Positions 29,505-45,026 of a stretch of DNA of 64,000 nucleotides are shown here, piece by piece. A model generated the notes under the pieces. That model ran no database searches. It was given only the letters and a program-made list of their open reading frames with translations, and was not told the origin of the DNA. The position numbers and the translations under genes were made by a program. The stretch covers positions 35,742 through 99,741 of the forward strand of contig CAZXYN010000003.1 of the NCBI GenBank assembly GCA_964644965.1. The letters run 5' to 3'. Source of the stretch: an uncultured Candidatus Saccharibacteria bacterium. Its GTDB lineage: Bacteria > Patescibacteriota > Saccharimonadia > Saccharimonadales > JACDBH01. Each line of letters opens with the position of its first letter. Positions within the stretch are counted from its first letter, which is position 1.

Positions 29505-30242
29505 ATGGCACCAAATCGCAACGGTTCGGGGTACGATGATGACATTGACGATATCATGGCCTCGATAATGAGTGGTAATTCCTCTTTGGAAACACAGCCA
29601 CCACCCCAGAAGAGACCAAAGCGACATCATATGTCGCCAAAGCGGCCTTCTGCCCGTGATGAATCCTTTGTGTCACCGCTGTCAATGAAAGAGGACACAC
29701 CACAGTCGCAACAGATAGAGAAGCCTGTGCGCAAGCACAATACAAAGAAAATCGGCCTCTATGTAGCGACCCCTGTTACATTGTTAGTACTAGTGTTTGG
29801 CGGTATGGCCTTATGGAATGGTCCGATCGCTGCACTCCTAAAGCCCCCAAGCCCGTTTAATGAGGAAGTCTTGGGTAAAATGACAGAAACACCTCTCTAC
29901 TACCCAACGAAGTTACCCGGAACCTACAAAATTGAGCTGAATAGTATAACCCAGCCAGAATCATCAGTGGTCGTGTACGCCATCACGGATGACAGCGGCA
30001 AAAAAATTAACGTCAGCCTGCAAGCTCAGCCAAAAAATATGACTCTCGAACCACTCTACAAGGCACTCACAAATCTTCGTAATACAGATACTAAGTTTGG
30101 TGTCATCAAGACTGGAACCTCTGAGGATGGCATTGACATCACCAATATTCTGGCAGGCAAAACATGGATTATTATCACATCAGCCAAAGGGGTGCTAAGC
30201 AGTGACGAAATTCAAACCATCGTTAATAGCCTAGAAGTCTAG
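29505..30242 (+). CDS. Hypothetical membrane-anchored protein (disordered cytoplasmic N-terminus, one TM, ~130-aa extracytoplasmic domain)
   Basis: 245 aa with TM IGLYVATPVTLLVLVFGGMALW. It is convergent with the Kelch giant gene, and the two stop codons overlap (30239-30242). Confidence 0.6.
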   Translation: MAPNRNGSGYDDDIDDIMASIMSGNSSLETQPPPQKRPKRHHMSPKRPSARDESFVSPLSMKEDTPQSQQIEKPVRKHNTKKIGLYVATPVTLLVLVFGGMALWNGPIAALLKPPSPFNEEVLGKMTETPLYYPTKLPGTYKIELNSITQPESSVVVYAITDDSGKKINVSLQAQPKNMTLEPLYKALTNLRNTDTKFGVIKTGTSEDGIDITNILAGKTWIIITSAKGVLSSDEIQTIVNSLEV

Positions 30243-33200
30243 GTACAGCTACCACCGCCTCCGCCACTATCGCCGCTCGTATCAAGCCCCTGCTTAACTT
30301 CGTTGCTAAAGTGTGTGCCCTGGCGTAGCCTAAACTCAGGCAACACCTGATTTGTCGTGTAGTTAACGGTAATATCACTGATAGTGCTCCCGTTTTCAGG
30401 GGCACTGGCTCTATATGTATCATCAATCGTCAGCCTAACCCACACGTACTGGGCGGTTTCGTTGATAGTATACCCGCTACCCGAAACAGCATTCGCTACC
30501 ACTGTGCTGGCACTAAATTCATCTGAACAAGCAGCTTTATATTCAAGTGTAAACTGGCCGCCACTACCAGTAAAACTAAGTGTCGATATTTCTCTAACTG
30601 ACCCCAGGTCTACTAGTTTGGAGTAAGTGCTCTTACGGGGTGCGGAGTTTATGGTGGCATAGTTGACTTCAGAAGAGGCTTCATTGGGGTTCCAGCCACC
30701 TACCTGGTACATATAGCCGTTATAGAATAGCATCTCTGCCGCGTCTCGGTTGTTGGGCAAGTTCACGGTCCGATTCCATTCACTGAGGTAACCATTAGGG
30801 GTAAAGGATGCGTACTCCACAATATTATAGTTAGTACAGCAACCACTATAGCCACCCGCAATGTAAAGCCTGCCATCGTATAAGCCTATCGCACTGTCGC
30901 CCCGTCGCACACCAGCATAGCGACTGATTGGCTCCCAAGAACCAATGGTACCGTTGGGGTTGGGGGTAGCTCGGTAAATAATGTTAACAAATGTATCTTC
31001 CCAGTCATCAAATCCGACAAGATAGAAGTACCCATCATGCTGCAGCAGTTCCTGTCCAGAACATGATTCCTGCGGCATAGCGGTGGTCGTGTTCCAGGAA
31101 CCAAGTGTGCCGTTGGAGTTTATCGGTGCATAGTATATTGCGGTAAAACAATCTGGCCACACCCAGCCGCCGGCGGCATATATGTAACCATTATAGACAA
31201 GAGCTGAAGGCTTGTGCCGATGACCGCCAGGTATAGTTGTTGTGGTACTCCACGACCCAATTGTTCCATTAGAATTTATTGGAGCGTATAACACTACTCC
31301 TGCTTGCGCTAAGTTTAGGCCACCTACTACATATACATAATTATTATTAACGGCTACACCACTTTGTGATTGCGGAAATGGCAGGCTTGTGGTTGCACTC
31401 CAGCTACCGAGAGTACCATTGGAGTTTATCGGTGCATAGTTGACATCTGTTCTCATGTCACCAAAATTATTCTCGCCACCTATCTGATACATATAGCCGT
31501 TGTGTACAAATGCAGAAAATTGAACAACAGGAGTTGGTAGCGCTGTAGTAGTGCCGTAGCTGCCTGTCGTACCAGGCCCACCACTGTTGATCCTGGCGTA
31601 CTGGGTAGTATTTTGATAACTTCCCGTGTAGCCCCCTGCAATATACATAAAGCCATTGTATGCAACCGCCCCTAAACGTCTGTTTACGCTCGACAGTGAA
31701 GTTGTGCTCGACCAGCTGCCAAGGGTACCATCGCTATTAACCCGTGCGAATTGTACTGTATTTACACTACCGCCTTCAGTTCCCCCCAGCACATATAGAT
31801 ACCCGTTATATATCGTAGCAGCATGGTCTCTTCGCGCAGCCGTCAGACCAGTAGTACTTGTCCAACCCCCGAGGGTGCCGTTACTATTTACTGTTGCGTA
31901 CTCAACTGTGCTGATATTAGTGGCACCTGCTGTTGCTGTTCCACCAAGTACATATATTTTGCCATCATAAGCTACAGATGCATGTGCTCTCCTAGCACTC
32001 GATAGAGCAGTTGTAGTAGCCCAAGTCCCAAGCGTACCGTCAGTATTAAGCTGCGCATACTCTACCGTCGAGAAATCATTCAACGAAGTATCACTACCGC
32101 CTATAGCATACAGATACCCGTTTGCAACTACGGCTGTATGCCAACGCCTAGCCGTATTAAGGCTATTCATTGCCGACCAGGAACCTAGAGTGCCATTACC
32201 GGTGTTTATAACGGAGCGACTTACTGTCACGATGTCCGAGCTGCCGTTATAGCCACCAATAACATACATCCGGCCGTTGTAGGCAACAGCAGCGTGGCTC
32301 CGAAGCGTCGAAGGCAGATTGGTTGTAGAGTTCCATGTGCCAAGAGTCCCGTCATTATTTATAGCCGCGTATCTGGTCGTATTTACACTATTCGTACCAT
32401 CTGATGACCCGCCCAAGACATACAGATATCCGTTGTAGGCCACTGTCGTATGGTCATATCTACCAGTATTAAAGGTCGTGCCTGCGGTATAACCCGAGGT
32501 GACTCCAGCCGGATGTATAGCCGCATAAACAACTGTAGTGGTTGCTGGGTAGTTAGTGCCTAGTGTATACAGATAGCCGTTGTAGGCTACCGAAGCGTGA
32601 TCCTGGCGTAAGCCACCGGAGAAGTTGACGCTGCTGGCTGTCCAAGCACCAAGCGTACCGTTGGCGTTAATAAGAGCGTATTCGCTGCCCTGACCGCTGC
32701 TAGAACTGCTAACACCACCTATAGCGTACAGGTAGCCGTTATGAACTACGGCGGCATGCTCCGATCGGTAGCTCGACACCATGCTCGGACCGGCTGTCCA
32801 GGAGCTAAGGGTGCCGTCAGAGTTAATCTTGGCATATTCAGTGGTATTGATGTTAGTGCTGCCGTTATTGCCGCCGATGGCGTATATATATCCATTGTAG
32901 ACTACGGCGGCATGATTAACGCGAATCGTACCCAGGCTAGCAGTCGAGGTCCAGCTGCCAAGCGTACCGTCGGCTTTGATAGGTGCAAAGTTAACCGATG
33001 TACTGGCCTGTTCCGGCCAAGGCAAAAACCCGCCAATGGCGTATATATATCCATTGTAGGCGACGGCTTCATGGAAGTTTCTAGTACCCGGCATGCTGGT
33101 AGTAGTCTGCCAGGAGCCGAGGGTACCGTTGGGGTTAATCTTGGCGTATTCGACACTAGACAACTCAGTACTCCAGTATGTCTGAAAGCCGCCAATGGCG

Positions 33201-34525
33201 TATATATATCCATTGTAGGCGACGGCATCAAACTGAGACCGGCCGATAGTCATGCTACTGGTAGCCGTCCAGGAGCCGAGGGTACCGTTACTATTGATTG
33301 GCGCGTATTGGACATCATCGAACGCCGGCGTGTCGTAGTTGCCATTAGTAGATCCGCCAATAATATACATGTAGCCGTTGTAGGCGACGGCTTCAGTATA
33401 AGAGCGAGCAGTGGCGAAACTAGAGGTGGCAGTCCAAGCTCCAAAACTCCCGCCACTAGCATCGGCTCTACGGATGGCGCCACTATCGTAAACAATGTTA
33501 TTGTCTTCACTATTGCCCTCAGTAAAATCTTCTGTGCTTGTCACCACCACACTCGGGTCGATACTAAGTGGGTAGTTTGCCTTTGATAGATTACGCGTAT
33601 GTACAGTCAGCACCCCGTCTTCGTAGCTAAAATACCCTGCCGATTTCTCGCTTTCTACAACCTGCCCTTCTACTGTTTCGTAGATCACGGGCTTAGGAAT
33701 TACAAATGCCAAGTGGGTTTTATCACCATTTTGACGGGCGGCCTCTACCTTCTCTCTATCTGCGTCTGACCCAAAGCTTATCGAGCCAAACAGCGTAGGA
33801 TCAGCCGAATACACCCCAAGCGATCCGTCGTCTAGTATTTTTGCCTGCAGACTGCCGGGTAACTCAAGATCATAGCCAAACTCCATCTCATCATTCACAA
33901 ATTCAGACAAGAGAATGTCCTCTTTCACACCGTTGCTTTTGAGTGTGTAGATGAGATGGGCATCGTCGTAACCCTTGAGCGGAAACACCACATGGCCGCC
34001 TGATTGCTGACCTTTGTGGGCAGAAAATCGTGGGGTTAATGTAAACGAAATTTCGAGCTGGGTGTCGTAGTAGGTCGCCCCTTTCTTAGGATCTCTAGAA
34101 ATAGAAGCGCCGTAAAGCAGCTCGTTGTCTTCCGCACCGCCGCCAACTTTTGCCTGGAGCTGCTCAATTGGATCTCCGCTCATTGAACCGATTGACTCGG
34201 CGTTGAATACATAGGCGTTTTCTTTTGAATCCAGTGTCAGCTTCTTATCGTAGCCCGCCGCCGGATCGCCAACCAGCGACCAGAGCGAATCAGAAAGCTT
34301 ATAGTCCACCCTGTTTTTGACAATCAAATACAGAGGTACCACCAGTGTCGCCAGGAACACTGCGGCTATACCGCCTGCCGCAAACCGCTGGCGGGTGGTG
34401 CGAAGATTGCGTTTAAAAAACCACTTCGCCTTCACCCGCGTGACCCGGAACGTGCGCTTGATTCGTCTTGTGACTTTTGCAGACTTCATATCTGTTTTTC
34501 GTCTCTTCCCTTTAGCTAAAAGCAT
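30239..34525 (-). CDS. Giant membrane-anchored Kelch-repeat protein (18 blades)
   Basis: 1,428 aa. Basic N-terminus plus TM (FAAGGIAAVFLATLVVPLYLIV). There are 18 copies of the x(Y/H)NGYhYxhGG signature, most followed by Y(A)xINS(N/D)GTLGSW; the blades span ~30650-33463. A unique ~290-aa N-domain and a ~130-aa C-terminal domain end in GDSGGGGGSCT. The start could alternatively be MKSAKV at 34489. Confidence 0.85.
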   Translation of the reverse strand: MLLAKGKRRKTDMKSAKVTRRIKRTFRVTRVKAKWFFKRNLRTTRQRFAAGGIAAVFLATLVVPLYLIVKNRVDYKLSDSLWSLVGDPAAGYDKKLTLDSKENAYVFNAESIGSMSGDPIEQLQAKVGGGAEDNELLYGASISRDPKKGATYYDTQLEISFTLTPRFSAHKGQQSGGHVVFPLKGYDDAHLIYTLKSNGVKEDILLSEFVNDEMEFGYDLELPGSLQAKILDDGSLGVYSADPTLFGSISFGSDADREKVEAARQNGDKTHLAFVIPKPVIYETVEGQVVESEKSAGYFSYEDGVLTVHTRNLSKANYPLSIDPSVVVTSTEDFTEGNSEDNNIVYDSGAIRRADASGGSFGAWTATSSFATARSYTEAVAYNGYMYIIGGSTNGNYDTPAFDDVQYAPINSNGTLGSWTATSSMTIGRSQFDAVAYNGYIYAIGGFQTYWSTELSSVEYAKINPNGTLGSWQTTTSMPGTRNFHEAVAYNGYIYAIGGFLPWPEQASTSVNFAPIKADGTLGSWTSTASLGTIRVNHAAVVYNGYIYAIGGNNGSTNINTTEYAKINSDGTLSSWTAGPSMVSSYRSEHAAVVHNGYLYAIGGVSSSSSGQGSEYALINANGTLGAWTASSVNFSGGLRQDHASVAYNGYLYTLGTNYPATTTVVYAAIHPAGVTSGYTAGTTFNTGRYDHTTVAYNGYLYVLGGSSDGTNSVNTTRYAAINNDGTLGTWNSTTNLPSTLRSHAAVAYNGRMYVIGGYNGSSDIVTVSRSVINTGNGTLGSWSAMNSLNTARRWHTAVVANGYLYAIGGSDTSLNDFSTVEYAQLNTDGTLGTWATTTALSSARRAHASVAYDGKIYVLGGTATAGATNISTVEYATVNSNGTLGGWTSTTGLTAARRDHAATIYNGYLYVLGGTEGGSVNTVQFARVNSDGTLGSWSSTTSLSSVNRRLGAVAYNGFMYIAGGYTGSYQNTTQYARINSGGPGTTGSYGTTTALPTPVVQFSAFVHNGYMYQIGGENNFGDMRTDVNYAPINSNGTLGSWSATTSLPFPQSQSGVAVNNNYVYVVGGLNLAQAGVVLYAPINSNGTIGSWSTTTTIPGGHRHKPSALVYNGYIYAAGGWVWPDCFTAIYYAPINSNGTLGSWNTTTAMPQESCSGQELLQHDGYFYLVGFDDWEDTFVNIIYRATPNPNGTIGSWEPISRYAGVRRGDSAIGLYDGRLYIAGGYSGCCTNYNIVEYASFTPNGYLSEWNRTVNLPNNRDAAEMLFYNGYMYQVGGWNPNEASSEVNYATINSAPRKSTYSKLVDLGSVREISTLSFTGSGGQFTLEYKAACSDEFSASTVVANAVSGSGYTINETAQYVWVRLTIDDTYRASAPENGSTISDITVNYTTNQVLPEFRLRQGTHFSNEVKQGLDTSGDSGGGGGSCT

Positions 34526-34566
34526 AACAGAAATAACATCTTTCGGCTATAGAATTTACCCCTGTG

Positions 34567-37500
34567 TTAGAATTTTGCAAAGTACTGGAAGGTTATATCT
34601 CCCGCCCGGGCAAAGTTACCATTAGTCGCCGTCACCTTGACCCGGAAGGTAATGATGTCGCCGGCAGCTATCGTACAGCTTGATTCATTACCTGTTAGCT
34701 GAGTGAACGTCCAGGTAGTATTGGTTGTCGAGCTATTGGTTGTCGAGCCACATTGTGTTCCATCTTCCTCAAATACTGCCAGCTCTACGCTGTCACTGCC
34801 TGTTGTGCGCCAGCCATACATGCCAAGTGTCGTATCTGATACCATGCCGTCAAAGTCGCTCGGTACCTGGTAGCGAATGTAGATATCGTAATCTTGGGCA
34901 GTGCCCTGGCTGGTTGTCCAGCCGTAATAGCTGAATTCTTCTGTTGCGCCACAGATAGTATTGTTTATGTTGCGCTTTGAGCTACCAGAACAGAAGTCGC
35001 TGGTCATAGTACCAAGGTTACTACTGCCATCGGCTGTAATCGTTGCTCCCATGTACTCAGGCGTAAACGTGACGCGCTTGGTTGGTCTACTTGTACCAAA
35101 GAACTCTATTGGTGAGCCGGCAGTTAGTCTAATACCGTTAGTTACGTCACCGACAATCAGCTCAGTATCTACAGTCAAATCACCAGTTACCGTTAGGTCT
35201 CCGTCGACATCTAGTGTGGCCGTGATTGTTATTGTATCTGTAGTTGTATCTACGTTTAGCAGTGTATCGTCACTTGAGTTCTGGATTCGGAATGCTGTTG
35301 TAGTGTCAGATGCATTACCGAACAGTGCTGCGCCAGTAAATGTCTTCGCCCCTGCAAGTGTCTGGGCAGATGTGCTGACCATACCAGGGTTGGTTTCATC
35401 AGCCGGGCCAAAGGTAATGGTGTTGCCAGATATGGTTGCGCCGTTTGTCTGTGAGCTGCCAGAGAAGGTAGCCACGGTAGTGACGCCCGTGCCAGGATCG
35501 CCGCTTCCCCCACCAGCCTTCAGTACAAAGCCGCCCCACATAGACGAACCATGACCATAACTGTTACTGACATTGAATTCCAGGTCTGTAGAGGTAGTGC
35601 CGGTTCGGAAGTATATTTCGGAATCTACACCACAGCAGCTAGTGAACATACTAGACCAGCCCGATGGCACCGCTAAGTCGCTGCCGCCACCATCATGATC
35701 TTCACCTATAGCCAGAATTACCCAGTCAGCTTCATTAGGTGTAGCACCAACGGTTTCACTGCCTGATTTGGTACCACTAAATGTTCCACTGACAAAACCG
35801 TCTACCGGTGTATCCTGGTCTACGCCAGAGAACTCACTGACAGAGATTTGATACTTATAAATGTTAAGTGATCCGGCATCGGCTACGATTTGCATGTTTG
35901 ATGGTGGTGAATCACCAACCACGGCATAGAAACTGCGGTAGGCAAGATCCCAGTCCTGGACAAAGCGCACACCGCCAATCGGCTGCCAGCTCAGGCTGCC
36001 GCCGGCTATGGTTAGGTCGGTTGCTCCGGCTGCGGGCGTACCGCCACCGCTGTTAACAGCCACTAACACTTGTGCGATTAGTACTGTACCTGCTTCTGGC
36101 GTAAAGGTTGAGCCGGCATTGAAGCTACCTGTTCCGTGGCTATCAGAGCTGGCTGCCTCAACCCGGCTTGTGCGGTTGATTTCTCCTGGCCCCTCTATTT
36201 CTGGCGGTGAGTAAATACAATCTTTCCACTCTCCGCCCTCATAGCAGCGGAATTTTCCAAGACTACTATTGTAATACATGGCGCCGTTTGTACCTGTTGG
36301 ATCACCGCTATTAGTTTTGGTATCGAGGACAAGCAGGGTACCGGTGGTGTCAGATTCACCAACTACTAGCCGGTTATTCGTCGTATCTATAGTGAATAGA
36401 CTTATACTTGAGCTGTTCTGAACACGGAAAGCAGTGGTAGAGTTGGTCGTGTTCTGGAACAGAGCACCACCGCCATCAGCTACCGTCATTACACCAGTGC
36501 CATTATCTTGCAGCTGAAGTATGTTGCCGGTAGACGTACCACTGTTGACGATCAGACCAATGGTCGTACCAGACACAGCATCAACATGCAGCCGAGCGCC
36601 GGTGGTTGTAGTGCCGATGCCGACATTGCCGGTGCTACCCTGGATTATCATCTTGGTGCTAAGGTTACGGAGTGTGGCGCCAGTTGCTCCGGCATTGGAG
36701 GTCTGGAATAAGATATCTCCACCAGCGGCAGAGCCAGTACCCCGTCCACCAGCAAGTGTTAGGTTTGCTCCCTGTATATCCGTGCCACTCCCGCCCGTGG
36801 CGTTGAGAGTGAAGTTGGCGGGAGCTGCATTGGTAACACCGTTACCGAAGTAGGCATTGTTAATAGCGGCAGTACTGGAGCCAATGACAAGCTGGTTGTT
36901 ACCCGTTGTTGTGGCGCCATAGCCAAGGGCAACGGAATACAGGTTACTGGCAGAGGCACTCCTTCCAAGTGCAGTGGAGTAGTTCCCTGCTGCGGCGCTT
37001 TGCCCCAGTACGGTTGAGTGAAAGCCCCCCGTTGAGCTTGATCCGATAACAACACTGTTCGAACTGGAAGCACTAGCACTATTGCCAATAAGAATAGTAT
37101 TACTATTGGAGGCTGAGGTGCTGCTACCAATAGCGATTCCGCCAGAGCTTGACACTAGGGCTCCCACACCTAGGGCAATACCAGAGGAACTGGCGCTCGC
37201 ACCAGACCCAATGACAACGGATGAATCCCCGTTCGCATCAGCATTCGTACCAATAGCAGTTGCATTAAAGCCACTTGCGGTTGCGCTGTAGCCAATTGCA
37301 AGCGTATTAGTATTGCTTGCGTTCGCACCGGCCCCGAACTGCTCACTGTTCGTACCGGTACCAGGTACAGAGATGCTGGCACCGTTGCTACCCTGGAGCA
37401 CACCAGCTGTTGTCAGGGTGAAGTAAGTAGTGTTGTTGGTCTCAAGATTCAATGCATAGTTATCATTGGTACCGATAGTAATAGCACCGCCATCAGTATT

Positions 37501-40170
37501 TCCGCCATTCATAATGTCGCCAGTTGCAGTCACACCACTAATACAGTCTTTCCATTCGCCGTCTTCATAACAGCGGAACTTACCAAGACTACTATTGTAG
37601 TACATTCCACCGTCTACACCTGTTGGATCACCAGAGTCTGCTTTGGTGTCAAGCACCAGAAGCTTGCCAGTGCCATTACCTATAGTAACTCCACCGCTGA
37701 GAGCAGTGTCACCTGTTACCTCTAGATTGCCGCTTATTGTGATAGTACCGCTTGCTTGGGTAATGATAGAGTCACCTATCTTGTTGCCCGCGCCAAATAC
37801 CGGGATGGTTCCGGGAGTGCTGTGGCCAATCCAGTTGATTTCTATGTAACCATCTCCAGTATGCTGGCCTTCATGTGCTCCACCTAATGGTATGAGCGAT
37901 GAGCCGCCGCCACCGCCGCCAGCACCGTTACAACCAGCGCCACAGGCACTACCACCGCCGCCGCCATAAACGCCGCCACCGCCACCGCCGCCTCTTCTTG
38001 GATTATTGTATCCACCGTTACCGCCCTGACCTAATGAGCCGGTGCCCCCACCAGCGCCAACAGTAGCTCCAGCCCCACCAGCCCCACCATTAGCACTAGC
38101 GGTGCCTGCTACTCCATTTGGATTACCTGCTGCACCACCGTTGCCCGGACCAGCACCACCAAAGCCGCCACCGCCACCACCGCCAGCGACGACTACACGA
38201 TTACCTAGTGCATTGGCGCCTTGACGTATATCAGTCGCACCGCCACCGCCACCGCCACTAGCACCAGGATTGCCTGAGTTACCACCACCATTCCAACCAC
38301 CGTTGCCATTTGGTGCAGTACCTCCGACATAAATATAGAGTGTTTCACCCGGTGTAACGGGTATTGTGGCGCTTACTATCGCACCTGCGCCACCAGCAGC
38401 ATCGCCTGCGCCACCAGAACCCCCTGCCGCTCTAATGCTTAGTTCCGTAATACCAGCAGGAACAACAAAGGTTTGCTGGGTACCGGTATAGCTAAAGCTC
38501 TGATTGCCACCTGAAGCGCTACCCCCCGTTAAGACCAATGCCCCCGAGGAATCAGGCAACTCGTACGTACGATCAGCCGTGATGCTGCTGGCCTGCAGTG
38601 TAGCTACAAACGCATTGGTAGCATTAAGCAGCTTGAGCATACCGTCTACAGTCTCTGATTCGCCAATGGTTAGGTTGCCGCCCTGGATGCGCATACCCTG
38701 GATAGATACTTCCTTATCTATATTGAGCCTATTACTAGAAGTATCATAGCTGATAGTAGCGTCATTGCCGTGTTCACCAATATGCAAACTGGATGAGCCT
38801 AAGTATAGATCGCGCCAGCGTATAGATGACGAACCTAAGTCATAAGTATTATCAGCACCGGGCAAGAAGTGACCATCTGTATCAAACAGCGCCCGTGTAA
38901 CCCCGTTTGTCTCAAAGTTCAGCGCATACTCGTCGTTCGTACCGATAGTAATAGCACCGCCATCAGTGTTTCCGCCGTTCATAATGTCACCAGTTGCAGT
39001 CACTCCACTGATACAGTCTTTCCAGCTGCCGCCTTCATAGCAGCGGAACTTACCAGCATTGGAGTTGTAGTACATGCCGCCGTTCTGGCCAGTTGGATCA
39101 CCGCTGTTGGTTTTGGTGTCGAGGACGAGCAGGCTGCCGGTAGTGTCGGAGGTACCGATACTAAGATTGCGGTTTATGTGGACTCCTGTCCAGTCAACCA
39201 TGAGCTCACCGCCGTTTGCAGCAATCTCTAGTTCATCATTGTCGTTATCGAAGACTATTCTGTTTGCGCCACTATTATCAAAGTATAGTTCTGATGAGCT
39301 TGATGCACCTGGGTTTAGGGTAATATTGACACCGCCGGTAGCATCACCAATCTGCAGATCTACGCCTGATAAGATTGAATTCGTGTTGATACCAACCCTT
39401 TCATTATCGCTATCAACAAGTAGAACCGTACTTGTTCCACCTGCGTCCTGGACCCTAAATGCAGTCGTCGAATTGTTTCGGATAGTCGTACTACCGTTAT
39501 TTGAAATCGTAAATACATCAGTGCCACTAGATTGCAGCTGCAACAAACCGCCAGCACCGGTTTGGTTAAGACGGATCGCAGAGTTGGCAGAGTTTATACC
39601 CTGCAAGGAGCCCGGAGCTGTTTGTACAAAATCATTGGTAGTAAAGTTGTTTGTTCCATCTGTCAGCGCACTTGCCTTGTCTGCCTGGAAGGCATGTGGC
39701 ACAGCCGTCAGCAGCAGTCTTGGGCTCATTTCGCCGTCCCAGCTTGGTGAGCCGGTTCCACCGATGTTCATACTCAGCCAGAGCTGCTCGCCCCACTGAA
39801 TCGTGCCCGGGAATGCAGAAACCGAGCCAAGACTTACAGTCATGTAGCCATTGGCAACCCGGACAGTGTTGCCGCCGGTTCGAGTCTCTGTCCAGAGACA
39901 GTTGGCATCACCACTGCAGCTACCTTGTGACGAGGTTCCAGAGGTAGACGCACTGTACAGTTTGAATTCCACATTGTAGTAGCCATCTGGCACGACAGCC
40001 CCAGAACCAGTCTTGAGCCGTGCCTGGAAGTTCAGGAAAGTACTTGGCGCAGCCGTGGCTGTAGGTGTTATTTGTCTCGAGATGCTTATGGCGGTAAGTA
40101 ATATCAAACCAAACACCAGCAACAGGGTGCGAAATACGGTACTTAACCGGTAGGTGTTATTTTTGGTCAT
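34567..40170 (-). CDS. Giant membrane-anchored mosaic fibre/adhesin-like protein
   Basis: 1,867 aa. N-terminal anchor TVFRTLLLVFGLILLTAISI. It carries three copies of a two-Cys module, a Gly-rich domain (~aa 556-781, nt 37828-38505), Ser/Ala/Gly-rich YadA-head-like repeats (~aa 941-1100, nt 36871-37350), and beta-helix-like TTAFRVQN segments. It lies 41 nt upstream of the Kelch gene. Confidence 0.85.
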   Translation of the reverse strand: MTKNNTYRLSTVFRTLLLVFGLILLTAISISRQITPTATAAPSTFLNFQARLKTGSGAVVPDGYYNVEFKLYSASTSGTSSQGSCSGDANCLWTETRTGGNTVRVANGYMTVSLGSVSAFPGTIQWGEQLWLSMNIGGTGSPSWDGEMSPRLLLTAVPHAFQADKASALTDGTNNFTTNDFVQTAPGSLQGINSANSAIRLNQTGAGGLLQLQSSGTDVFTISNNGSTTIRNNSTTAFRVQDAGGTSTVLLVDSDNERVGINTNSILSGVDLQIGDATGGVNITLNPGASSSSELYFDNSGANRIVFDNDNDELEIAANGGELMVDWTGVHINRNLSIGTSDTTGSLLVLDTKTNSGDPTGQNGGMYYNSNAGKFRCYEGGSWKDCISGVTATGDIMNGGNTDGGAITIGTNDEYALNFETNGVTRALFDTDGHFLPGADNTYDLGSSSIRWRDLYLGSSSLHIGEHGNDATISYDTSSNRLNIDKEVSIQGMRIQGGNLTIGESETVDGMLKLLNATNAFVATLQASSITADRTYELPDSSGALVLTGGSASGGNQSFSYTGTQQTFVVPAGITELSIRAAGGSGGAGDAAGGAGAIVSATIPVTPGETLYIYVGGTAPNGNGGWNGGGNSGNPGASGGGGGGATDIRQGANALGNRVVVAGGGGGGGFGGAGPGNGGAAGNPNGVAGTASANGGAGGAGATVGAGGGTGSLGQGGNGGYNNPRRGGGGGGGVYGGGGGSACGAGCNGAGGGGGGSSLIPLGGAHEGQHTGDGYIEINWIGHSTPGTIPVFGAGNKIGDSIITQASGTITISGNLEVTGDTALSGGVTIGNGTGKLLVLDTKADSGDPTGVDGGMYYNSSLGKFRCYEDGEWKDCISGVTATGDIMNGGNTDGGAITIGTNDNYALNLETNNTTYFTLTTAGVLQGSNGASISVPGTGTNSEQFGAGANASNTNTLAIGYSATASGFNATAIGTNADANGDSSVVIGSGASASSSGIALGVGALVSSSGGIAIGSSTSASNSNTILIGNSASASSSNSVVIGSSSTGGFHSTVLGQSAAAGNYSTALGRSASASNLYSVALGYGATTTGNNQLVIGSSTAAINNAYFGNGVTNAAPANFTLNATGGSGTDIQGANLTLAGGRGTGSAAGGDILFQTSNAGATGATLRNLSTKMIIQGSTGNVGIGTTTTGARLHVDAVSGTTIGLIVNSGTSTGNILQLQDNGTGVMTVADGGGALFQNTTNSTTAFRVQNSSSISLFTIDTTNNRLVVGESDTTGTLLVLDTKTNSGDPTGTNGAMYYNSSLGKFRCYEGGEWKDCIYSPPEIEGPGEINRTSRVEAASSDSHGTGSFNAGSTFTPEAGTVLIAQVLVAVNSGGGTPAAGATDLTIAGGSLSWQPIGGVRFVQDWDLAYRSFYAVVGDSPPSNMQIVADAGSLNIYKYQISVSEFSGVDQDTPVDGFVSGTFSGTKSGSETVGATPNEADWVILAIGEDHDGGGSDLAVPSGWSSMFTSCCGVDSEIYFRTGTTSTDLEFNVSNSYGHGSSMWGGFVLKAGGGSGDPGTGVTTVATFSGSSQTNGATISGNTITFGPADETNPGMVSTSAQTLAGAKTFTGAALFGNASDTTTAFRIQNSSDDTLLNVDTTTDTITITATLDVDGDLTVTGDLTVDTELIVGDVTNGIRLTAGSPIEFFGTSRPTKRVTFTPEYMGATITADGSSNLGTMTSDFCSGSSKRNINNTICGATEEFSYYGWTTSQGTAQDYDIYIRYQVPSDFDGMVSDTTLGMYGWRTTGSDSVELAVFEEDGTQCGSTTNSSTTNTTWTFTQLTGNESSCTIAAGDIITFRVKVTATNGNFARAGDITFQYFAKF
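36214..36336 (-). repeat. Two-cysteine module, copy 3 (aa 1279-1319)
   Basis: LLVLDTKTNSGDPTGTNGAMYYNSSLGKFRCYEGGEWKDCI. Confidence 0.85.
37540..37662 (-). repeat. Two-cysteine module, copy 2 (aa 837-877)
   Basis: LLVLDTKADSGDPTGVDGGMYYNSSLGKFRCYEDGEWKDCI. As in copy 1, it is followed by the near-identical SGVTATGDIMNGGNTDGGAITIGTND. Confidence 0.85.
39010..39132 (-). repeat. Two-cysteine module, copy 1 (aa 347-387 of the 1,867-aa protein)
   Basis: LLVLDTKTNSGDPTGQNGGMYYNSNAGKFRCYEGGSWKDCI. Confidence 0.85.
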
Positions 40171-44564: not shown

Positions 44565-45026
44565 ATGGCTCATAAATCCGCTATTGTATACATCCTAAAG
44601 GCGCTTATTCCTTACTCTAGGGAAAACTTGAATCTCGCGTTCAAGCCCAATAGATTCTTTGATGAGCTTGAACGTACTTCTGGTCAAAAGCGTAAAACAC
44701 TGCAAACCGCCTACTATCGAGCTCATAACGAAGGCTTAATCCAGAATCAAAACGTACTAACCCTTACTGGCTGGGAGAAGGTTCTGCCCTTCGTCGCCAA
44801 AACCTTACAGAAGGATGTCGTCCTGATGGTTATATTCGACATACCAGAGGATTCAGCCCCACTTAGGCGTGAATTGCGAGGCTTTCTGAGGCGTCTAGAT
44901 TTTATCCAAGAGCAGCAAAGTGTATGGGTAAGCAGCTTTGACTACACCAGGTATGTTGAGGAATATGTTAAAAATAAATCACTACAGAACTACGTCCAAG
45001 TATACGAAGCAGCTCGCATATGTTAA
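44565..45026 (+). CDS. PaaX-like / Cas2-fold-like putative regulator
   Basis: 153 aa. The C-terminal half VVLMVIFDIPEDSAPLRRELRGFLRRLDFIQEQQSVWVSSFD matches the 'FDIPE...R..LR..L..LGF..LQ.SVW' pattern of PaaX-C/Cas2-like ferredoxin folds. The N-terminal half is wHTH-like. TATAAT (44553-44558) lies 6 nt upstream of the ATG. Confidence 0.6.
   Translation: MAHKSAIVYILKALIPYSRENLNLAFKPNRFFDELERTSGQKRKTLQTAYYRAHNEGLIQNQNVLTLTGWEKVLPFVAKTLQKDVVLMVIFDIPEDSAPLRRELRGFLRRLDFIQEQQSVWVSSFDYTRYVEEYVKNKSLQNYVQVYEAARIC

Follow-up and report, generated by a model that had tools for sequence, protein, structure and literature searches.

The 64,000-nucleotide (nt) stretch of DNA analysed here (the window), from an uncultured Candidatus Saccharibacteria bacterium, contains on its minus strand an open reading frame (ORF; 34567..40170) for a fibre-like protein of 1,867 amino acids (aa); all parts of this protein named below lie on the same strand. 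The protein carries three copies of a 41-aa module with a Cys-x8-Cys pair. Copy 1 (LLVLDTKTNSGDPTGQNGGMYYNSNAGKFRCYEGGSWKDCI) spans aa 347-387 (39010..39132, with Cys377 and Cys386), copy 2 aa 837-877 (37540..37662, Cys867 and Cys876) and copy 3 aa 1279-1319 (36214..36336, Cys1309 and Cys1318). The string LLVLDTK starts at aa 347, 837 and 1279, exactly where the original prediction, made by a model from the letters of the window, had placed the three modules. That prediction saw in them a disulfide-stapled knob presented three times along a fibre. The analysis presented here indicates that the module is most likely neither an independent domain nor a ligand-binding knob; it is most likely a structural junction of a phage-tail-fibre-like surface fibre, probably made of three chains, in a Saccharibacteria-type bacterium.

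The copies are alike both in protein (80-88% aa identity over the module) and in DNA (74-80% nt identity, found by the repeat search over 140-237 nt). Comparison of the protein with itself by segments (BLASTP) aligned aa 344-400 with 834-890 (84% identity, expectation value (E) 6e-33), aa 333-387 with 1265-1319 (80%, E 2e-30) and aa 809-877 with 1260-1319 (61%, E 4e-25). The additional stretch that copies 1 and 2 had been said to share does exist, although it comprises 46 residues (388-433 against 878-923, 78% identity, the first 26 identical) and not about 35. The TTAFRVQ segment thought to precede every copy is found before copies 1 and 3 (112 and 34 aa upstream) but not before copy 2, and a TTAFRIQ at aa 1624 has no module behind it. 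A six-frame scan of the window with a hidden Markov model (HMM) of the module gave the three copies and no others; a possible degenerate fourth copy at aa ~1675-1700, before the C-terminal tip, was not detected by the module HMM in the correct frame at E<=10.

Between the module copies, the nonsynonymous changes per site (dN) are 0.10-0.18 versus 1.16-2.05 synonymous ones (dS; Nei-Gojobori), and synonymous sites are near saturation. Even the 26 protein-identical residues past copies 1 and 2 have a dS of ~0.49. Hence the copies are old and have been kept by purifying selection, and the recent internal duplication proposed at first has to be abandoned. The probability that collapsed or expanded repeats in the assembly made the three copies, a danger to which the original prediction itself had pointed, is practically nil: a divergence of 20-26% of the nucleotides between copies excludes it, the copies stand in different contexts within one uninterrupted reading frame, and the multi-copy arrangement recurs in hundreds of independent assemblies.

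As suspected from the start, the module belongs to no named family. With its flanks, in relatives and in the cysteine-free units described below it had no Pfam match at E<=10, and comparison of the whole protein with NCBIfam and PHROGs gave nothing covering aa 347-387, 837-877 or 1279-1319. Word-indexed homology searches returned only short fragments (2, 7 and 6 matches), and a profile was instead run exhaustively over 1.84 billion representative proteins. Of these, 1,962 matched at E<=1e-3, 934 at E<=1e-10 and 122 at E<=1e-30, the module-bearing representatives being typically 500-5,000 aa long with 1-14 copies each. The statistics on relatives given throughout refer to the best 150 of these 1,962 matches, 149 of which contained together 480 instances recognized by an HMM built from the three window copies. 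Scanning one genome per species gave 163 confirmed stretches in 77 loci, almost all in metagenome-assembled genomes (MAGs) of Candidatus Saccharibacteria, Saccharimonadales or Patescibacteria, and often several per assembly; some paralogues are adjacent (L004 and L054 on OZ246417.1), and assembly CAZJWS01 holds six loci. At the metagenome scale on which a search had been suggested, the module is not rare, and almost all of the genome matches are Saccharibacteria or other Patescibacteria. Within a protein family that varies greatly it is one of the best conserved parts; other members of the family bear FG-GAP, Kelch or NHL repeats. The closest relative, in a Saccharibacteria MAG (locus L003), is 56% identical over aa 1-387. 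Ten members looked up by exact sequence had no name other than 'hypothetical protein', an exact look-up of the window protein in the assembly index gave no record, and no description of a module-bearing family in Saccharibacteria was found in the literature. Only 3 of 2.9 million viral contigs contain the module. These three (L079, L080 and L081, from IMG/VR) may be Patescibacteria phages or misclassified cellular contigs; two have the Cys pair in another lead-in (...SDPSSPADGDTYYNSSTHKFRCYQNGAWTDCIS) and one has the cysteine-free form at the extreme C-terminus of an ORF.

An iterative search with aa 320-470 as query showed the module to be the N-terminal half of a recurring unit of ~125-145 aa, whose other half, the extension, follows the pattern GD(I/L)xNGGNxxGxxxxIGTNDxxxLxFETNGxxR. 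The relatives hold 387 near-full units of module plus extension, and the distance from module to module has its mode at 140-160 aa. In the window protein, unit 1 (aa 333-433, 38872..39174), supported by the iterative search and the match to Bd3182 given below, consists of lead-in strand, module and extension (SGVTATGDIMNGGNTDGGAITIGTNDEYALNFETNGVTR). Unit 2 (aa 823-923, 37402..37704; self-BLASTP and unit search) likewise has module and extension, and half-unit 3 (aa 1265-1319, 36214..36378; self-BLASTP) has the lead-in and copy 3 without extension, running straight into the orphan segment aa 1320-1560. Against all PDB sequences the unit profile matched with its extension the Bd3182 fibre (8ojn/8onb/8onc; E 4.8e-4; GTNDAFSLSFETNNTPRMTIDDVGRVGVGTT), and in pairwise comparison the window extension is 52% identical to it over 21 aa (E 1e-6). 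On these alignments the extension is taken to correspond by homology to the beginning of the beta-helix of Bd3182, which is a symmetric trimer in the crystal. Bd3182 is one of the 'mosaic adhesive trimer' (MAT) fibres, which are displayed on the Bdellovibrio surface for prey recognition (PMC10769870).

The conservation pattern within the module is informative about the cysteines. A regular-expression count of module instances gave 353 with both cysteines, 17 without and 2 with a single one. Among the aligned instances, positions 377 and 386 are C-C in 372 sequences and otherwise G-I, V-M, A-I and similar, so that the Cys-x8-Cys pair behaves as a unit, replaced as a whole by a hydrophobic pair, which fits the disulfide originally suggested. 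Positions 367/376 are Y-R in 368 and R-E in 84, and positions 353/358 are K-D in 289 and D-R in 20. The joint changes at 377/386 and at 367/376 are those that a disulfide and a cross-strand pair, respectively, would give. An N-glycosylation sequon at YYNS(S) was rejected as the cause of the conservation, since position 371 is S or T in only ~24% of the instances. An isopeptide or ester cross-link among K353, D351 and N369 was also considered; the cysteine-free variant does not conserve K353, and the covariation of K353 with D358 is that of a charge pair.

The cysteine-free form (IVIPRDTAANRPTGVNGMIRYNT..KFEVY..G.W) accounts for about one fifth of the instances and follows the pattern (I/V)(I/V)(I/V)PR(D/G)T(T/A)A(N/Q)RPxxGVNGMIRYNTxxxKFE(V/A/G)(Y/F)xxGxWxx(M/I/L). 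Its profile aligns with that of the Cys type with 98.3% probability (hhalign). It fills fibres that terminate in an S74 chaperone: where cysteine-free members have 12-14 modules, their C-terminus is the intramolecular chaperone Peptidase_S74, recognized by Pfam in P0117 (E 6e-7), and P0038 and P0055 have SDRRxKE motifs. Peptidase_S74 is a chaperone of trimeric fibres. P0117 is a 4,687-aa relative (locus L082; GCA_964453895.1, CAYVRZ010000023.1, 2001-16064) with 14 cysteine-free modules; PF26696 PTL_trimer is listed for it in a precomputed annotation and was not reproduced by our own Pfam scan.

Aa 300-480 were modelled with AlphaFold2 from a 50-row alignment, with a mean predicted local distance difference test (pLDDT) of 70 and a predicted template modelling score (pTM) of 0.41. 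The confident part is a meander of three antiparallel strands, MYYN 366-369, GKFRCY 374-379 and GSWK 382-385 (pLDDT 86-87), together with a hairpin of the extension at aa ~417-437 (pLDDT 88); the remainder is low-confidence coil. Covariation of 367/376 agrees with the pairing of strands 1 and 2 in the predicted sheet. In the hairpin register given by DSSP, Cys377 and Cys386 are diagonal neighbours on the face shared with M366, Y368 and F375. The structural neighbours found with Foldseek are weak; they are consistently trimeric phage fibres (CBA120 TSP4-N, T5 pb1, lambda gpJ, HylP and Bd3182), with minor tail proteins and S74-chaperone-bearing proteins as further weak matches.

The same model could be read as that of a monomeric beads-on-a-string protein, a single-chain beta-solenoid adhesin in which the module would be a cap or linker hairpin with an ordinary intrachain disulfide. 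A single chain is enough for AlphaFold2 to fold the three-stranded sheet with good local confidence, each YadA-head repeat, of which the protein has a segment, makes its own beta-roll per chain, and the Cys-x8-Cys spacing suits a hairpin staple. However, the monomer model leaves most of the unit as low-confidence coil, a result common when an intertwined oligomer, and usual when an intertwined trimer, is modelled as a single chain. Moreover, the fibre to which the extension is homologous is trimeric by experiment, the S74 trimerisation chaperone occurs in relatives, and the weak structural neighbours are all trimeric fibres. A monomeric fibre is thus distinctly improbable in our judgement.

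A more specific relationship emerged with TSP4, the tailspike of phage CBA120. TSP4-N was the top Foldseek match (E 0.46, not significant). When the whole-unit profile was compared with PDB sequences, the module matched TSP4 residues 47-79 (VTGLPSSVRYNPDSDEFEGYYENGGWLSL), weakly (E 1.3), and the cysteine-free profile against all PDB sequences found TSP4 with E 0.036-0.059; compared by hhalign, the cysteine-free profile and TSP4 align with 95% probability and a pairwise E of 3.6e-8. In TSP4, an intertwined triple beta-helix (residues 7-42) is followed by a three-stranded antiparallel sheet per chain, and the three sheets build a beta-prism II on the threefold axis, a combination of beta-helix and beta-prism II also present in K1F endosialidase and T4 gp34 (PMC8825819). 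Since the secondary structure prediction, the sequence profile and the weak top Foldseek match point at one and the same element, the module is likely an element of the TSP4 anchor domain (TSP4-AD) type, as judged from profile and model. The HMM-HMM comparison and structure prediction that had been suggested thus provide no curated family, and instead a remote match to TSP4 together with a three-stranded sheet.

The position of the module along the proteins is also characteristic. The 80 aa upstream of it fall into one similarity cluster in 260 of 355 instances, while the downstream side splits into 54 clusters, the largest with 126 of 361. From the last module to the C-terminus there is a median of 224 aa, and in P0004 and P0119 the module directly abuts the C-terminal, carbohydrate-binding module (CBM)-like, tip domain. 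A uniform upstream side and a varied downstream side indicate that the module ends a shaft segment and precedes whatever comes next.

Such a distribution would also be produced if the module were conserved mainly as shared sequence for the exchange of downstream cassettes between paralogous fibre genes, its structure being secondary. This is compatible with a structural junction, and the mosaic architecture with shared N-terminus and shaft and near-unique inserts, the homogeneous upstream and heterogeneous downstream context, the several paralogues per genome, some of them adjacent, and the near-identical internal copies in relatives such as P0003 speak for it. Nevertheless, DNA of 74-80% identity with saturated synonymous sites is a poor substrate for homologous recombination, and the conservation is at the protein level, so we regard exchange as a fairly unlikely main reason for the conservation.

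The context and the TSP4 relationship bear likewise on the original knob, read here as an exposed disulfide-stapled mini-domain that would bind a host-surface ligand and be displayed three times along the fibre. Conserved aromatics (Y367, Y368, Y378 and W383) together with a conserved Asn are what sugar-binding sites typically show, and the protein, CBM-like at its tip, is probably an adhesin. A ligand-binding element would nonetheless be hard to reconcile with a module that is among the least variable parts, under strong purifying selection, in a family in which the rest is freely swapped, and of which a single protein may contain as many as 14 copies, ~145 aa apart. With only ~41-58 aa, highly conserved and folded in the model as a three-stranded sheet without a compact domain (pTM 0.41), the module is too small and poorly self-contained, and its best structural relative, the nearest one solved, is the axial beta-prism II assembly layer of a trimeric tailspike and not a receptor-binding head (PMC8825819). 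The knob along the fibre, which we hold to be even less probable than the monomeric protein, was therefore given up in favour of the junction.

The remaining parts of the protein agree with a fibre of mosaic construction. The N-terminus (MTKNNTYRLSTVFRTLLLVFGLILLTAISISRQITPTATA, followed by AP), read by eye, resembles a Sec signal peptide, and by this sequence the protein looks like a secreted one. The region past it (aa ~43-230, 39481..40044) is conserved across many module-bearing proteins and is a candidate cell-proximal or anchoring domain: with aa 40-335 as jackhmmer query at least 70% coverage was obtained in 48 of 150 relatives, and aa 1-230 were matched by tblastn in loci L003, L067, L040, L039, L031, L054 and L046. 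Directly after unit 1 lies a tail-fibre motif (HFLPGADNTYDLGSSSIRWRDLYLG, aa 434-458, 38797..38871), matched by tblastn against phages to the C-terminal part (DGHLRPASNNTYDLGTSSDRWRNVY) of a Prochlorococcus podophage gene (E 1e-8); this gene is annotated 'hypothetical protein' and, from its N-terminus, is a putative T7-like tail fibre. A glycine-rich domain (aa 558-781, 37828..38499), which begins SFSYTGTQQTFVVPAGITELSIRAAGGSGG and matches phrog_7388 (PHROGs, E 3e-17), a phage family without known function, was found in none of the 150 best relatives and hence seems a recently acquired insert. Aa ~925-1120 (36811..37398) resemble YadA heads: Pfam YadA_head (PF05658; E 1.6e-9, 38.3 bits with a cut-off of 25) is the sole Pfam match in the whole protein, and phmmer of the whole protein against PDB sequences gave YadA-type heads only (1p9h, E 1.5e-9). 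This part occurs in 5 of 150 relatives. The segment after copy 3 (aa 1320-1560, 35491..36213) had no match in Pfam or PDB sequences, and just one of the 150 relatives has a homologue; within the segment, Cys1512-Cys1513 are a vicinal pair. The shaft segments, by comparison, are found in 70-89 of 150. The protein is accordingly a mosaic of a shared N-terminus and shaft with near-unique inserts.

The C-terminal tip (aa 1691-1867, 34570..35100; Cys pairs 1727/1740 and 1807/1832) is a CBM-like beta-sandwich according to AlphaFold2 and Foldseek. The model of aa 1680-1867, from a 15-row alignment, is all-beta, with pLDDT 78.8 and pTM 0.75. Its Foldseek matches in the PDB are CBM61 (2xom, E 1.1e-5), CBM11 (1v0a, 8e-5), CBM4 and CBM22, and also the C-terminal domains of the Klebsiella phage K2-2 tailspike (8.6e-5) and the Kp7 gp52 tail fibre (7.9e-4). 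This domain was found in 8 of 150 relatives, and the loop 1727/1740 is present or missing as a whole among homologues. Host cell-wall glycans have been implicated in the attachment of Saccharibacteria. The 16 cysteines that the protein contains are all arranged in eight close pairs (85/91, 377/386, 743/747, 867/876, 1309/1318, 1512/1513, 1727/1740 and 1807/1832), as expected of an extracellular protein.

Taken together, the Bd3182-like extension, the YadA-head segment and the podophage tail-fibre motif support the fibre-like nature of the protein that had been proposed and, with the S74 chaperone in the cysteine-free relatives, suggest a trimeric context for the module. Starting from the observed repeat, family, conservation with covariation, predicted sheet, remote matches and mosaic context, we infer a trimeric state, a beta-prism II packing, a disulfide with its geometry and a surface and adhesive function, and propose the following model. 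In each copy, the strand LLVLD would be followed by the conserved loop TK..GDPTG and by the antiparallel meander G-MYYN / KFRCY / (S)WKDC. A homotrimer would supply three meanders, one per chain, and by analogy with the TSP4 anchor domain these would pack round the fibre axis as a beta-prism II layer, located where the chains come out of a more intertwined part of the shaft. The Cys-x8-Cys pair, whose positions are hydrophobic in the cysteine-free variant, would most likely form a disulfide locking the layer in this extracellular protein, either within a chain, with a kink after Asp385, or with a neighbouring chain in the core of the prism. The node would thereby keep chain register and stability where the shaft passes into variable parts, namely the Bd3182-like beta-helix, the Gly-rich domain, the YadA-head-like and orphan segments or, in relatives, the tip. 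As a whole, the protein would form a fibre on the cell surface that ends in a carbohydrate-binding-module-like domain, and it is a candidate for the fibre by which an episymbiotic Saccharibacteria-type cell attaches to its host, comparable to the Bdellovibrio MAT fibres.

We consider this model, in which a disulfide-locked axial node joins a uniform shaft to variable segments in a fibre with a CBM-like tip, a fairly probable one, taking into account a number of points that weigh against it: (i) the covariation counts come mainly from two subfamilies and are numbers of sequences, not of independent events; (ii) by geometric reasoning on the model, an intrachain Cys377-Cys386 bond would need the kink after Asp385; (iii) the monomer model is mediocre (pLDDT 70, pTM 0.41) and Foldseek gave no significant match, the best E being 0.46 in the PDB and 2e-3 in BFVD; (iv) compared directly with TSP4 by hhalign, the Cys type reaches a weak 66.6%, and the stronger link is transitive, via the cysteine-free variant, over ~25-30 aligned residues; and (v) the cysteine-free profile also matches a designed Kelch propeller, with a summed E of 2.8e-5 from six repeats of E ~370 each, so that the short beta-meander motif may be convergent.

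The fibre gene is chromosomal, among housekeeping genes (L21, IleRS, ParAB, RNR). Forty-one bp downstream of it, on the same strand, begins the gene of a 1,428-aa protein (window 30239-34525, minus strand) whose N-terminus is basic and which has a single hydrophobic segment and over 15 Kelch repeats (Pfam Kelch_1, E 4.5e-57); the two genes probably share an operon. Kelch repeats lie within 3 kb of the module in 9 of 77 related loci, and in the relative P0091 Kelch repeats and modules are on one protein. The G+C content is 0.50-0.525 over window 32001-40000, which covers the two giant surface-protein genes, versus 0.43-0.48 in most of the window; Gly/Ala/Thr-rich composition or a foreign origin could account for it. 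Between IleRS and class II ribonucleotide reductase (window 44565-45026, plus strand), a 153-aa protein with a PaaX_M (Cas2-like) domain (E 4e-13) is encoded.

How ultrasmall episymbionts recognize and hold their hosts has been described as largely unknown. The sequence handle ~GDP.G..G.MYYN....KFRC(Y/F)..G.W..C singles out, in just these organisms, a very large family of giant secreted proteins without a name so far, and ties it to proteins of understood mechanism, the trimeric phage tail fibres and the Bdellovibrio MAT fibres. If the proposed model is right, the host-range determinants of Saccharibacteria could be searched for in genomes and tested in cultivated strains, a new profile family could be curated, and protein engineering might make use of the disulfide-bearing beta-prism node as a compact element that locks trimers. 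More broadly, and as a tentative proposal that may well not hold, Saccharibacteria and related Patescibacteria would possess a large, unannotated and fast-shuffling family of trimeric surface fibres derived from phage tail fibres, a counterpart of the MAT fibres of Bdellovibrio, that determines to which host cells they attach, and in it the disulfide-locked module would be the universal connector through which binding cassettes (CBM-like tips, Kelch, FG-GAP or NHL propellers, Gly-rich and YadA-like segments) are mounted on a common shaft.

Among known systems, the trimeric autotransporter adhesins share with the window protein the YadA head repeats of aa ~925-1120, above the Pfam cut-off. The two differ in that no anchor or translocator family was found in Pfam for the whole protein or for aa 1320-1867, the C-terminus being a CBM-like beta-sandwich, in that NCBIfam YadA_autotrans scores 25 bits with a cut-off of 750, and in that the YadA segment lies outside the module. 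As the anchor domain is absent, the identity of a trimeric autotransporter was discarded. The blades of Kelch proteins have a similar short beta-meander pattern, YN....(V/F)E.Y.....W; a Kelch propeller was also rejected, because isolated copies 440-490 aa apart cannot form one and there is no Kelch match of the fibre protein in Pfam. The resemblance to phage fibres (T5 pb1, K1F endosialidase, T4 gp34, T7-like gp17) includes the motif DNTYDLGSSSIRWRDLY, common to the putative podophage tail fibre; unlike them, the window gene is chromosomal and the Cys-type module is nearly absent from viral contigs.

The MAT fibres, represented by Bd3182, are a close parallel in overall design, since they also are cellular fibres built of phage-tail-fibre-like elements, with a signal peptide, a conserved N-terminal region (in the MATs a beta-rich domain of ~130 aa directly behind the signal peptide), a long shaft and tips that vary. 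S74 stands at the C-terminal end of the cysteine-free relatives and of 13 of 21 MATs (PMC10769870), and the window protein, with a CBM-like beta-sandwich as its alternative tip, resembles the NS74-type MATs; it differs from the S74-type ones in having this tip and, by Pfam, no S74. An episymbiont is compared here with a periplasmic predator of another phylum, and the window protein has nodes with a probable disulfide.

For the module itself the likely counterpart is the anchor domain of CBA120 TSP4 (residues ~43-79; 7rej/7rfo/7rfv), although the similarity is weak and short. Both follow the pattern G..(Y/R)YN......F(R/E).Y..G.W, both have one three-stranded antiparallel sheet per chain (predicted by AlphaFold2 here, seen in the crystal there), and both sit after a shaft-like segment and before other domains. 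TSP4, however, has a single N-terminal copy, dedicated to baseplate anchoring and trimer assembly, whereas here three copies, and up to 14 in relatives, are found in a cellular protein; the module has a Cys pair in place of Tyr/Leu, and the lead-in LLVLDTK..GDPTG is specific to the module family. What appears to be new is a disulfide-bearing, multi-copy variant of a TSP4-type node, as suggested by profiles and model, joined, by its sequence, with a Bd3182-like half in a unit of 125-145 aa, the Cys form being restricted to a very large unnamed family of giant proteins of Saccharibacteria/Patescibacteria.

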